Positions 30,598 to 33,500 of a DNA stretch of 40,301 nt are shown here, one piece after another. Below the pieces are notes generated by a model. It made no database searches and was not told the origin of the DNA. It worked only from the letters and a program-made list of their open reading frames with translations. Source of the DNA: Usitatibacteraceae bacterium (lineage in GTDB: Bacteria > Pseudomonadota > Gammaproteobacteria > Burkholderiales > Usitatibacteraceae); NCBI GenBank assembly GCA_044221765.1, contig JBGAOO010000001.1, forward strand, positions 1 to 40,301. Direction: 5' to 3'. The first letter of the stretch is position 1. Every line of letters begins with the position of its first letter. The position numbers and the translations under genes are program-made.

Positions 30598-33500
30598 CTA
30601 GTCCGGGGCGCCGTAGCCGCCGCCGCCGGGCGTCTCGATGACGAAGACATCGCCCGCGGCCACGGCCGTCTCGTCGGCGAAGCCCAGGTCGGTGCGCGTG
30701 CCGTCGGCGCGCTCGACCCAGTTGGCGCCGAGCGCGCCCGGCAGCCCGCCCGCCATCCCGTAGGGCGGCACGCGGCGATGGCCCGCGAGGATTGCGGCGG
30801 TCATCGGCTCGAGGAAGCGGATGCGCCGCGTGGCGCCGTTGCCGCCGTTCCACCGGCCCTTCCCGCCGCTGCCCGCGCGGATCCCGTGCGCGTCCACGCG
30901 CACCGGGTAGCGCCACTCGAGGACCTCCGGGTCGGTGAGGCGCGAGTTCGTCATGTGCGCCTGCACGGTGTCGGTGCCGGGGTAGCCCGGCCCGGCGCCG
31001 GTGCCGCCGGAGATGGTCTCGTAGTACTGGTAGGTGTCGTTGCCGAAGGTGAAGTTGTTCATCGTCCCGTAGGACGCCGCCTGGTTGCCGAGCGCGCCGT
31101 AGAGCGCGTCGGTGATGCACTGCGAGGTCTCCACGTTGCCGGCCACCGTGGCGGCGGGCGGGCGCGGGTTGAGCATCGAGCCCTCGGGGATGCGCACCTC
31201 GAGGGGCTTCAGGCACCCGGCGTTCAGCGGGATGTCGTCGTCCACCAGCGTGCGGAAGACATAGAGGACGGCCGCGTAGACCACCGCCGAGGGCGCGTTG
31301 AAGTTGCTCGCGAGCTGCGCGCTGGTGCCGGCGAAGTCGATCACGGCGCTGCGGCGGTCGGCGCCGATGGTGATCTTCACGCGGATCACCGCGCCGTTGT
31401 CCATCTCGCAGGCGAACTCGCCGTCCTTGAGCACGCCGATCACGCGCCGCACGCATTCCTCGGCGTTGTCCTGCACGTGGCCCATGTAGGCCTTCACGAC
31501 GTCCAGGCCGAAGTGGGCCACCATGCGGCGCAGCTCCTGCACGCCCTTCTCGTTGGCGGCCACCTGCGCGCGCAGGTCGGCGATGTTCTGGTCGGGGTTG
31601 CGGGCGGGGTACCTCGCGCCGGCGAGCAGGGCGCGCATCTCGGCCTCGAGCAGGCGGCCGTCCTCGACGAGCTTCACGTTGTCCAGGAGCACGCCTTCCT
31701 CCTCCACCGTCTTCGAGAAGGGCGGCATGGAGCCGGGCGTGATGCCGCCGATGTCGGCGTGGTGTCCCCGGGACCCCACGTAGAAAAGCGGGGACACGGA
31801 TGGACACGGACCAGGACGGATTTCCCGTGGCGATTCACCGGGCGAGGGGACTGTCCCCGCCTCTTGGGGACCGTCCCCTTGCCGAGCGCCTGCGGTGTCG
31901 TCGAGAAAGACGGGGGTGATGACCGTCACGTCCGGCAGGTGCGTGCCCCCGTTGTAGGGATCGTTCAGGACGTAGACGTCGCCCGGCCTCATCTTCCCCG
32001 CGTTCTTCGCGATGACGGTCTTGATGGACTCGCCCATCGAGCCCAGGTGCACGGGCATGTGCGGCGCGTTGGCGATGAGCTGGCCGCCGCTGTCGAAGAG
32101 CGCGCAGGAGAAGTCCAGGCGCTCCTTGATGTTCACGGAGTAGGCGGTCTGCGCCAGGCGCACGCCCATCTGCTCCGCGATGGACATGAAGAGGTTGTTG
32201 AACACCTCGAGCATCACCGGGTCGGCCTTCGTGCCCGCGGCGTAGCGCACGGCGCGCGGCCGGACGCGGCGCAGCACGAGGTGGTCGAGCGCGGTGACCT
32301 CGGCCTCCCAGCCGGGTTCGACCACCGTCGTCGAGTTCTGCTCCGCGATGATCGCCGGGCCGGCCAGGCGCTGCCCGGGCACCAGGTGCTCGCGGCGCAG
32401 GACCGGCGTGTCGTGCGCCTCGCCCCCGCTCACCATGCGCACGCGCTCGAGCGGCTCGCCCGGGGCGCGCCCGGCCCGCGCCTGCGCGCCCTCCGCCGGC
32501 GCATCGGAGCGGCCGATCGCCTCGACCGACACCGCCTCGACGATGAGCGTGCGCTCGGGCATGAGGAAGCTGAAGCGCGCGCGGTACAGCCGCTCGAAGG
32601 CCTCGCGCATCGCCGCCGGCTCGCCCAGGGGCACCGCCAGGGCCGTGTCCGTGCCCTCGTACTTCAGGTGCGCGCGCCGCTCGAGGCGCTCGAGCGGGAC
32701 GCCCTGCCCCGCCAGCTCCTTCGCGCAGGCCTCGCCCAGGCGCCCGGCGCGCTCGCCGATCTCGGCCATGGCCGCCTGCTCGAGCCGGCGCTCCACCGCC
32801 TCCTCGCGCAGCGCGCGCACCTGCGCGAGGCCCATGCCGTAGGCCGAGAGCACGCCGGCGAGCGGGTGGATGTAGACCTGCGTCATGCCCAGCTCGTCGG
32901 CCACCAGGCAAGCGTGCTGCCCGCCCGCGCCGCCGAAGCACGCGAGCGTGTACTGCGTCACGTCGTGGCCGCGCTGCACGCTGATGAACTTGATCGCGTT
33001 CGCCATGTTCGCCACGGCGATGCGCAGGAACCCCTCCGCCACCTGCTCGGCCGACTGCGGCTGGCCGGTGGCCGCGGCGATCTCGTCCGCGAGGCCGGCG
33101 AACTTCGCCTTCACCGCCCGGGCGTCGAGCGCCTCGCCTCCCTTCGGGCCGAACACCTTCGGGAAGTACGCGGGCTGGATGCGCCCGAGCATCACGTTGC
33201 AGTCGGTCACGGCGAGCGGGCCGCCGCGCCGGTAGCAGGCCGGCCCGGGATTGGCGCCCGCCGAGTCGGGCCCCACGCGCTGGCGCTGGCCGTCGAAATG
33301 CAGGATCGACCCGCCGCCGGCGGCGATGGTGTGGATCGACATCATCGGCGCGCGCATGCGCACCCCGGCCACCTGCGTGTCGAACTCGCGCTCGAGCTCG
33401 CCCGCGTAGTGCGACACGTCGGTGGAGGTGCCGCCCATGTCGAAGCCGATCACCTTCGCGAAGCCGGCGAGCTCCGAGGTCTTCACCATGCCCACGATGC

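Follow-up and report, generated by a model that had tools for sequence, protein, structure and literature searches.

The window analyzed here, a 40,301-nucleotide stretch of contig JBGAOO010000001.1 (assembly GCA_044221765.1) from a bacterium of the Usitatibacteraceae, contains a gene of the hydantoinase/oxoprolinase family with an expanded loop in its HyuB domain.

30598-34296, minus strand: host gene (ORF with start codon) for a fused HyuA/HyuB hydantoinase/oxoprolinase-family protein of 1232 amino acids
31786-31905, minus strand: expanded loop, 40 codons (residues 798-837) between an 11-residue motif and FYVGSRGHH
31884-31905, minus strand: 5' segment of the loop that is probably native, LDDTAGA.., resembling short-loop orthologues, e.g. 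LDEGGQAKPL

Pfam searches with the host protein revealed full Hydant_A_N, Hydantoinase_A and Hydantoinase_B domains, the last of them covering profile positions 1-519 of 519, and orthologues of the gene are annotated by JGI as 5-oxoprolinase (ATP-hydrolysing). The protein is 87% identical to its nearest orthologue across 99% of its length, and the gene order DctP-gene-Dus-Fis-PurH-PurD-HemF is kept among orthologous loci. The 40 residues that the original prediction had placed between the HyuB motifs were found exactly so in the ORF translation, encoded by in-frame DNA, and an invariant 10-residue HyuB motif sits shortly past the loop. As had also been claimed, the insert keeps the frame, contains no stop codon and leaves the ORF of 1232 codons open, as seen in the ORF translation and in a six-frame stop check. 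Comparison with ten orthologues gave dN/dS values of 0.15-0.27 at dS values of 0.40-0.56 and, on this evolutionary evidence, the host gene is under purifying selection and still functional. Because such dN/dS values correspond to purifying selection, the gene is not inactivated, and the earlier alternative of a silently inactivated gene was rejected on these values and on the presence of part of the insert in seven orthologues.

With its complete HyuA/HyuB architecture, the host protein conforms to the Hydantoinase B/oxoprolinase family (PF02538), from which it differs by the length of this one loop. In the solved homologues 7hk5 (N-methylhydantoinase) and 6yra (caprolactamase) the alignment breaks exactly at the loop site, where about 4 residues are present in the structures, and 60 of 80 more distant orthologues (61-81% identity) have a loop of 8 residues with the consensus DEAGxEIL, versus 40 residues here. 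It had been considered that unrelated orthologues might carry a similar loop; however, the more distant ones lack the expanded version. This comparison of homologues confirmed the loop DNA as an insertion relative to the family baseline of 8 residues, and comparison with P0035, P0054 and P0041 suggests that the native part is probably delimited at 31884-31905. In an AlphaFold2 model of the HyuB domain, used solely for its strand-coil-strand topology, the loop is a coil with pLDDT <50 between domain strands 101-107 and 148-153; owing to a shallow alignment of closely related sequences, the mean pLDDT of the model was only 61. Among homologues the natural loop length ranges from 6 to 45 residues, which argues for tolerance of the loop site. 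The loop includes 8 Pro and 6 Gly among its 40 residues, and the inserted Pro/Gly-rich peptide is probably disordered and surface-located. An intein or a self-splicing intron was rejected, given a segment of 40 residues (120 nt), the lack of Cys/Ser...His-Asn junctions and the Rfam scan of the whole window at gathering threshold, which returned no family.

Elsewhere in the window, three copies of a repeat family, E1-E3, were located between genes.

8592-8802: E1, full intergenic copy with 52-nt inverted arms, 98% complementary, and a 107-nt interior
13795-14274: E2, copy with a GxxExxY (TIGR04256) coding region inside, at 13857-14225
16184-16466: E3, full copy with two extra 33-nt right-end units (repeat D14)

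Three full copies in the 40-kb window mark the source as a dispersed, multi-copy palindromic repeat, and the DNA of E1 folds into a 52-bp hairpin (z = -13.6). With 200-480 bp, multiple copies, long inverted arms, a strong hairpin and a location in short gaps between operon genes (E3 fills the gap between two ABC-ATPase genes), E1-E3 resemble REP/BIME elements and MITEs such as ERIC, Correia and Nezha. Small size and terminal inverted repeats (48-54 nt, 98% complementary), as in MITEs, are found in E1-E3 and are not found in the fragment inside the gene. Typical REPs are species-specific; in contrast, the arms of the E family consist of three tandem 10-nt units, and a 27-nt sequence of the decamer arm is identical in at least 119 genomic stretches from many phyla, including Usitatibacteraceae MAGs. 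On reading the flanks of E1-E3, no obvious direct duplication indicative of a target site was seen, and no transposase was identified with the family. A further difference from REPs and MITEs is that one copy carries a GxxExxY gene, the sole cargo seen. The coding region in E2, of the PD-(D/E)XK-like type, has no canonical start codon. By tblastn, GxxExxY was detected beside decamer arrays at 4 of 119 loci, and it is therefore no regular passenger of decamer elements at this tblastn sensitivity. At the syntenic locus L096, an element occupies the gap of E3, with identical decamer arms and an unrelated interior. BLAST of the insert and of E1 against plasmids gave no match. Literature searches with decamer strings found no paper, and those with 'GxxExxY' found passing mentions only; the decamer-hairpin repeat family appears to be undescribed in the searchable literature.

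By comparison with E1-E3 and with orthologous loci, the insert in the host gene is a composite of a decamer module (DEC) and a hairpin module (GD).

31788-31839, minus strand: DEC module, GAATC, then three degenerate decamers, then the outer-arm junction TGTCCCCGC
31832-31836, minus strand: GAATC of the DEC module
31792-31821, minus strand: degenerate decamers ATCCGTCCTG, GTCCGTGTCC and ATCCGTGTCC of the ATCCGTGTYC type
31841-31883, minus strand: GD module, 43-nt hairpin GGCAAGGGGACGGTCCCCAAGAGGCGGGGACAGTCCCCTCGCC, translated as (R) and 14 residues
31866-31878: first 13-nt palindrome, in gene sense GGGGACGGTCCCC
31846-31858: second 13-nt palindrome, in gene sense GGGGACAGTCCCC
31852-31868, minus strand: outer-arm motif, 17-mer CCCAAGAGGCGGGGACA, resembling the E-family outer arms

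The DEC module, translated as a stretch of 17 residues, is identical at 22/23 positions to the right arm of E2 and at 26/31 positions to an arm of E1, and the inverted-repeat pairs I12 and I15 of the window's repeat listing link it with the family. Its 14-mer ATCCGTGTCCCCGC at 31788-31801 (minus strand) recurs without change at 14251-14264 in E2 and, when one mismatch was allowed, gave 3 matches versus 0.04 expected. Similarly, the decamer motif CACGGATGRACACGGA matched 12 times in the window (0.02 expected), that is 11 times in the intergenic E1-E3 and once in the gene (31795-31810). For the 17-mer CCCAAGAGGCGGGGACA with up to 3 mismatches, the only other matches were both E2 arms, with 14/17 identity to each, and the total of 3 matches compares with 0.27 expected and was reached in 0 of 100 shuffles. 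When the insert was aligned locally to E1-E3, the top score was 41, whereas 490 random 120-nt segments of the window used as a null scored 19.1 ± 2.4 and never exceeded 28. All the family hallmarks proposed for the extra DNA, namely a left-arm-type motif, GAATC, three degenerate units and the E2-identical 14-mer, were thus located, and the similarity to the element arms, which might have been insignificant, far exceeds chance in each of these measures. For the decamer module, the shuffle and random-segment controls in practice already refute coincidence.

The insert shares with the E family the three tandem ATCCGTGTYC-type 10-nt units of an arm, the outer-arm motif CCCAAGAG..GGACA by decamers and the junction of ATCCG with TGTCC..; within the gene, the outer-arm motif does not adjoin any left decamer array. 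It lacks the pair of inverted decamer arms that form a hairpin of ~50 bp with the termini GAGTGACGC / GCGTCACTC, since the left terminal motif and the left decamer arm are absent. One decamer arm, the missing terminal motif and a weak fold (z = -1.6 versus -13.6 for the full E1) therefore define the insert as a fragment rather than a full family member. No frame of the forward decamer array contains a stop, in contrast to the reverse consensus array, which contains TGA; in E1 and in E3 each of the six frames is interrupted by stops, whereas the insert is stop-free in five of six. The original prediction, in which a reduced member of the window's repeat family lies in frame and contributes ~30 residues, was upheld with corrections: derivation from the family stands, but the insert is a composite, and its GD part is common to syntenic orthologues in the same phase.

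When folded as RNA, the GD module forms a paired stem with a 7-nt loop. It holds two GGGGACNGTCCCC palindromes, and the layout of CCCAAGAGGCGGGGACA matches that of CCCAAAGGCGGGGACA in L066 and of CCCAAAGACGGGGACA in L007 and L096. Both 13-nt palindromes of the original prediction were located, but they are not a hallmark of the intergenic copies, as GGGGACNGTCCCC was absent elsewhere in the window and in 1.34 Mb of fetched loci, and a scan of viral contigs for the double palindrome gave no match. With no GGGGACNGTCCCC outside the loop in these sequences, it is not demonstrable that the GD module on its own is a dispersed repeat.

The GD module was present, in identical codon phase, in L001-L004 and L206-L208, seven syntenic orthologues with 81-87% protein identity to the host protein, and decamer modules in the phase of the window's, with different decamer variants, were present in L001, L006, L209 and L127. 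MAGs with orthologues include GCA_029781595.1, GCA_016720855.1, GCA_016709665.1 and GCA_964587315.1. As judged by the distribution of the modules, the insert is not private to the source genome. Among the 120 closest homologues, 37 had short loops and 83 had expanded ones (>10 aa), whose repeat-like sequences fall into five or more unrelated types. Several of the orthologue inserts for which DNA was available are strong hairpins (z = -6.6 in L210, -11.9 in L003, -3.9 in L129 and -3.7 in L187). Since other orthologues have unrelated hairpin repeats in this loop, the site is either permissive or a hot spot. In the 20-kb flanks of orthologues decamer arrays were scarce, with one in L004 only.

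We consider it likely that the extra 30-32 codons are the relic of hairpin-forming repeat DNA in a tight turn of HyuB that is now translated within the enzyme. The DNA would have entered the coding sequence of this turn, which links two strands in HyuB, and the relic would comprise two modules. The first would be the 43-nt hairpin with its two palindromes and a core like the outer arm of E1-E3, which would already have been present in the ancestor common to several related Usitatibacteraceae-like genomes. The second would be a half element, composed of GAATC, three ATCCGTGTYC-type decamers and the junction TGTCCCCGC, matching the E family of its own genome. In-ORF survival would have been restricted to the element half and orientation that is open in every frame, as the opposite arm (GGATGAACA units) produces TGA in every frame and would have been deleted or never fixed. 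The leftover length would preserve the reading frame, and the probably disordered and surface-placed Pro/Gly-rich peptide, if translated, would be tolerated by the enzyme as a presumably neutral addition. Some features speak against a relic. The GD module agrees with the outer arm at no more than 14/17 positions, with the left terminus GAGTGACGC and the left decamer arm missing; GD synonymous sites are conserved far above the gene background, as a purely neutral relic would not predict; and the same-phase decamer variants of orthologues differ in a way that a single ancient insertion plus drift explains poorly.

The last of these features bears on a different history, not on the nature of the insert. 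The loop may be an insertion hot spot or undergo gene conversion via shared arms, so that each lineage's insert would be comparatively young, and we regard this as possible, albeit somewhat improbable. Decamer variants differ among orthologues and are often uniform across the three units of one array (CCGTG in the window, CCGCG in L001, GGCG or TGCG types elsewhere), and the DEC module of the window matches, at 22/23 positions, the E2 junction of its own genome. In L208 the spacer of the GD module is inverted (GCTCCTT versus AAGAGGC), in L003 a second hairpin is nested beside the first, and unrelated repeat types occur in one and the same loop, just as L096 combines identical decamer arms with an unrelated interior at the E3 site. 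Recent copying would also yield conservation of palindromes at synonymous sites. However, all decamer modules share one phase and orientation and all GD modules one phase, for which a single ancestral event is the simplest explanation, and the 11/30 positions at which the decamer arrays of the window and L001 differ fit drift at dS ~0.5. No donor double palindrome was seen in ~300 kb of related genomes, and a neighbour-joining tree, built from the 120 homologues after excision of the loop, was star-like and too poorly resolved to count independent insertions. The shared phase and orientation of the modules could also stem from site-specific targeting or from selection.

At the DNA level, the synonymous positions of the GD codons GGG, CCC and GGG were invariant in 8/8 sequences, whereas gene-wide 16% of four-fold sites were invariant, and only 3/110 conserved Gly columns were all-GGG and 1/52 Pro columns all-CCC. 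The three invariant rare codons show DNA-level conservation of the palindromes. The double palindrome might accordingly be a functional nucleic-acid element in the ORF that is kept by selection, with the peptide as a by-product, which we consider quite unlikely. Invariance despite dS ~0.5, conserved stems around a 7-nt spacer and central bases that vary or are inverted, and the confinement of the motif to this loop within the 1.34 Mb of loci are in agreement with such a role. Nevertheless, the GD module is dispensable, because 37/120 close homologues are short-looped and many others carry unrelated inserts; the second palindrome is decayed in L001; the sample consists of eight related, non-independent sequences; and recent copying or hairpin-templated correction gives an equal signal. 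Candidates would be a site bound by a dimeric protein, given the 20 bp between the two GGGGACNGTCCCC sites, or an mRNA hairpin affecting translation or stability; we know of no binding protein or phenotype for the double palindrome. It is doubtful that the HyuB turn, beyond being tolerant, is a specific landing pad at which hairpin elements are integrated or exchanged via their conserved arms, with the double GGGGACNGTCCCC kept as a working DNA or RNA element by selection or by hairpin- or copy-templated correction. If true, this would represent a dual-use coding sequence that a repeat family with decamer arms identical across phyla preserves in different species.

That the loop is native, lineage-specific low-complexity sequence grown by slippage, with a coincidental likeness to the repeats, is very improbable. 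Its Pro/Gly-rich composition, the resemblance of the inserts of P0004, P0049 and P0118 to tandem duplications and the L211 insert, which is not a hairpin (z = -0.9), would fit slippage, but the match to E1-E3 lies ~9 standard deviations above the null, 16-mer and 14-mer motifs are far commoner than expected, and the order of GAATC, decamers and outer-arm junction mirrors the intergenic elements. A pseudogene or an assembly artefact, conceivable since the window apparently derives from an uncultured organism and chimeric assemblies can arise at repeats, is next to impossible and was rejected on the full-length ORF with its intact domains, the dN/dS values and the homologous inserts at the identical codon in independent assemblies (ENA, JGI and NCBI samples).

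The probable relic of repeat DNA can be compared with known in-gene repeats. The best-documented case of selfish palindromic DNA that persists in frame is that of Rickettsia. Its palindromic elements located in frame within genes (RPEs; Ogata et al., 2000, 2002) have been reviewed (PMC10969869), and in-frame ERIC and MITE fusions inside genes have also been reported (PMC10969869). The parallel with RPEs drawn in the original prediction is sustained as an analogy: the insert lies in an ORF, in frame and stop-free, and the gene is functional on the evolutionary evidence of dN/dS, complete domains and conserved synteny. In both cases, a copy of a dispersed palindromic repeat resides in a conserved metabolic gene and adds a peptide segment at a place tolerated by the fold, presumably so in the present protein, with the host gene still under selection. 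No sequence relationship is expected, however, and the likeness is one of behaviour, not of RPE family membership. Other differences are that the host here belongs to a free-living, high-GC betaproteobacterial lineage whereas Rickettsia is obligate intracellular, that RPEs encode an open peptide over their entire length whereas the in-gene copy, owing to the stops in each frame of a full element, is reduced to half an element, and that among orthologues this one loop accommodates several repeat types unrelated to each other. Since other hairpin repeats are found at this spot in related bacteria, the insert is, by analogy, an additional bacterial case of a known phenomenon, the survival of selfish palindromic DNA in genes.

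A Rickettsia-like process would thus operate in free-living, high-GC Betaproteobacteria of soil and water. Dozens of orthologues of one enzyme with no, one or several nested hairpin inserts form a natural comparative series, which could be used for studying the gain of loops from repeats, the filters on insertion (stop-free orientation, codon length and surface position) and nucleic-acid-level functions of embedded palindromes. In practical terms, the loop marks an insertion-tolerant position in oxoprolinase/hydantoinase B enzymes.

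The hydantoinase/oxoprolinase gene of the window encodes a protein with complete Hydant_A_N, Hydantoinase_A and Hydantoinase_B domains (Pfam). Its orthologues carry the JGI label 5-oxoprolinase (ATP-hydrolysing), and the gene order DctP, oxoprolinase gene, Dus, Fis, PurH, PurD, HemF is kept around them. The HyuB domain contains an unusual loop, and the features considered here, including the three intergenic full copies (E1 to E3) of the window's decamer-hairpin repeat family, are:

30598-34296, minus strand: hydantoinase/oxoprolinase gene, open reading frame of 1232 residues
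31786-31905, minus strand: 40-residue loop preceding FYVGSRGHH (translation)
31884-31905, in the gene's sense: probable native loop part LDDTAGA..
31841-31883, in the gene's sense: hairpin (double-palindrome) module GGCAAGGGGACGGTCCCCAAGAGGCGGGGACAGTCCCCTCGCC, 43 nt
31788-31839, in the gene's sense: decamer module consisting of GAATC, ATCCGTCCTG GTCCGTGTCC ATCCGTGTCC and CCGC
8592-8802: E1, inverted arms of about 52 nt, variable interior
13795-14274: E2, inverted arms of about 52 nt, variable interior
16184-16466: E3, inverted arms of about 52 nt, variable interior

A loop of 8 residues with the consensus DEAGxEIL is found in 60 of 80 orthologues from metagenomes (61-81% identity), and alignments with the solved homologues 7hk5 (N-methylhydantoinase) and 6yra (caprolactamase), which have about 4 residues there, are interrupted exactly at the loop. 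Judged from these comparisons, the window loop is an insertion of about 30-32 extra codons. In an AlphaFold2 model of the HyuB domain, which is weak (mean pLDDT 61) and of use for topology only, the loop is a low-confidence coil flanked by two strands. The suggestion that the gene had been silently inactivated is rejected because dN/dS values of the window gene against ten orthologues, with the loop left out, are 0.15-0.27 (dS 0.40-0.56); by this measure the host gene is alive.

The repeat family of the window is real. Each arm of E1 to E3 combines the terminus GAGTGACGC with the outer-arm motif CCCAAGAG..GGACA and a tandem array of three decamers, which are CGGATGAACA in the left arm and TGTTCATCCG in the right. 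E1 folds into a 52-bp hairpin (z = -13.6). Three positions distinguish the outer arms of E1 from those of E3 (AAGAGCTAGG versus AAAGGCAAGG; 8603-8618/8776-8791 and 16195-16210/16369-16384), and a matching change in the partner arm goes with each of them, so that complementarity is perfect within each copy. The right terminal unit of E3, GTGTCCTTGCCTTTGGGTCGCGTC.., is present as three tandem 33-nt copies at its end (16368-16466), and the left terminus of E3, GAGTGA, provides the stop codon (TGA, 16187-16189) of the ABC-ATPase ORF that lies upstream. The interior of E2 (13857-14225, plus strand) encodes a full-length homologue of GxxExxY (TIGR04256; E = 1e-36, profile positions 2-115 of 116), with no ATG, GTG or TTG start between the upstream TGA and 14019; a GxxExxY gene lies within 250 nt of a decamer array in 4 of 119 decamer loci (L010, L031, L039, L075). 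The arm 27-mer CACGGATGRACACGGATGRACACGGAT has exact matches in species-representative genomes from many phyla, in at least 119 stretches (loci including L007-L125), and usually forms part of a hairpin whose variable interior measures 20-110 nt. Hosts among the matches listed are mostly Verrucomicrobiota, with Planctomycetota, Acidobacteriota, Kiritimatiellia, Nitrospirota, Bacteroidota and Alpha-, Beta-, Gamma- and Deltaproteobacteria also present. An Rfam scan of the window gave no family for the decamer-arm repeat, and a literature search gave no paper on it. Copies E1 to E3 look similar to REP/MITE elements; neither a target duplication nor a transposase was identified for them.

Between the insert and these intergenic elements the best local alignment reached 41, compared with 19.1 ± 2.4 (maximum 28) for 490 random window segments. 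The decamer module, which runs into the last native-like codons (P-L), is the counterpart of the inner end, right arm and arm junction in the intergenic copies, with 22/23 bases matching E2 and 26/31 matching E1. The hairpin-module core CCCAAGAGGCGGGGACA resembles the outer arm of the family (14/17 to E2; counterparts are CCCAAAGGCGGGGACA in locus L066 and CCCAAAGACGGGGACA in L007 and L096). The 14-mer identical to E2 has 3 matches with at most one mismatch (0.04 expected), the 17-mer arm motif matches, besides its in-gene copy, only both arms of E2, and CACGGATGGACACGGA, a motif found 12 times in the window (0.02 expected), is perfect inside the gene. The insert lacks the left decamer arm and the termini, and as a whole it folds no better than shuffles (z = -1.6). 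With a single arm and neither terminus, the insert is on this sequence evidence a fragment of the repeat family and not a full member. The original prediction of a reduced repeat copy, inserted in-frame in the oxoprolinase gene and giving a stretch of 40 residues, is real and in essentials rightly interpreted; all motifs that it listed, including two 13-nt palindromes, are present at their places.

In the array orientation ATCCGTGTTC all three frames are open, reading IRVHPCSSVS. Read the other way, as GGATGAACA, the array contains TGA, and with a 10-nt period a run of three units brings this stop into each frame; in E1 and E3 none of the six frames is free of stops. A full element would be incompatible with survival inside an ORF and only the stop-free arm could persist, which would account for the reduced copy and for the single orientation of all decamer modules in orthologues (IGVHLRSSA, IRVHPRSSAV and similar). 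We infer selection as the cause of this stop-free half-element outcome.

In the 120 homologues closest to the window protein (78-87% identity; from Usitatibacter-like MAGs), the loop has at most 10 residues in 37 and is expanded in 83, the longest having 45, and on this count the insertion is not private to the window genome. A rough motif classification of these loops gave:

Double-palindrome peptide GDxPxxxGTVP: about 26
Decamer peptides: about 20
SPSPLGEGRGEG: about 15
EARGTRHEAREE: about 9
PAKAGAQS: 2
Others: 14

Comparison of the DNA places the hairpin modules of L001-L004 and L206-L208 in the codon phase seen in the window. L001, L006, L209 and L127 have decamer modules, likewise in phase but with different decamer variants, and unrelated strong hairpins occupy the same loop in L210 (108 nt, z = -6.6), L129 (-3.9) and L187 (-3.7). 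The 45-residue loop of protein P0040 (L003 12398-12532) combines, in-frame, the double-palindrome module with a second, nested hairpin whose near-perfect 28-bp stem is GGGGACGGACTTGAAAGGGACTGTCCCC..GGGGACTGTCCCTTTCAAGTCCGTCCCC (z = -11.9).

On the contig of P0023, whose loop has the double-palindrome module only, a four-unit decamer array (CACGGATGGA.. units; L004 9950-9995) lies directly upstream of the oxoprolinase start codon. Where they align to window residues ~233-236 (HyuA domain) and ~598-611, close homologues also vary in length and carry the repeat-like peptides PSPLGEGRGEGP and TLSPALSQGRGS, with no insert in the window gene; the position near 233-236 is a weaker second variable site.

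Synonymous sites were compared in eight related genes that carry the hairpin module. Of 531 four-fold sites at conserved residues, just 16% are the same in all eight, and all-GGG and all-CCC columns are found in 3 of 110 conserved Gly and 1 of 52 Pro columns, respectively. The palindrome codons GGG, CCC and GGG are invariant in all eight, while the 7-nt spacer of the module and the central bases are variable. Against this background, and for a small sample of eight related sequences, the invariance points either to constraint at the nucleic-acid level or to repeated re-copying or correction of the hairpin module. The palindrome was not found beyond this loop in the window, in 1.34 Mb of fetched loci or in viral contigs.

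Several points are better explained by recurrent insertion, or by conversion via the arms: decamer variants differ per lineage, the window module matches the junction of its own E2, the spacer is inverted in L208, and L003 carries a nested element. A parallel exists at E3. In L096, a syntenic Usitatibacteraceae MAG with 80-87% nucleotide identity over window positions 14607-22673, the element in the same intergenic gap (6190-6440) has identical decamer arrays, an unrelated interior and different outer arms, suggesting that interiors may be swapped between copies or the site re-inserted. A single ancient insertion that later decayed accounts for the common codon phase and position, and the differences between the decamer arrays of the window and L001 (11/30) fit a dS of ~0.5. 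The branching of a neighbour-joining tree does not discriminate between single and repeated insertion.

Palindromic repeats inside genes are known from the Rickettsia palindromic elements and from some ERIC and MITE copies (PMC10969869). The parallel drawn to the Rickettsia elements holds in behavior, as it does for the ERIC and MITE copies, with no sequence relationship to either, and the window insert is an additional instance of a known phenomenon. Beyond a lone in-frame insertion, one enzyme turn has been colonized again and again by hairpin repeats of different kinds, and the synonymous-site conservation of the embedded palindromes adds to its interest.
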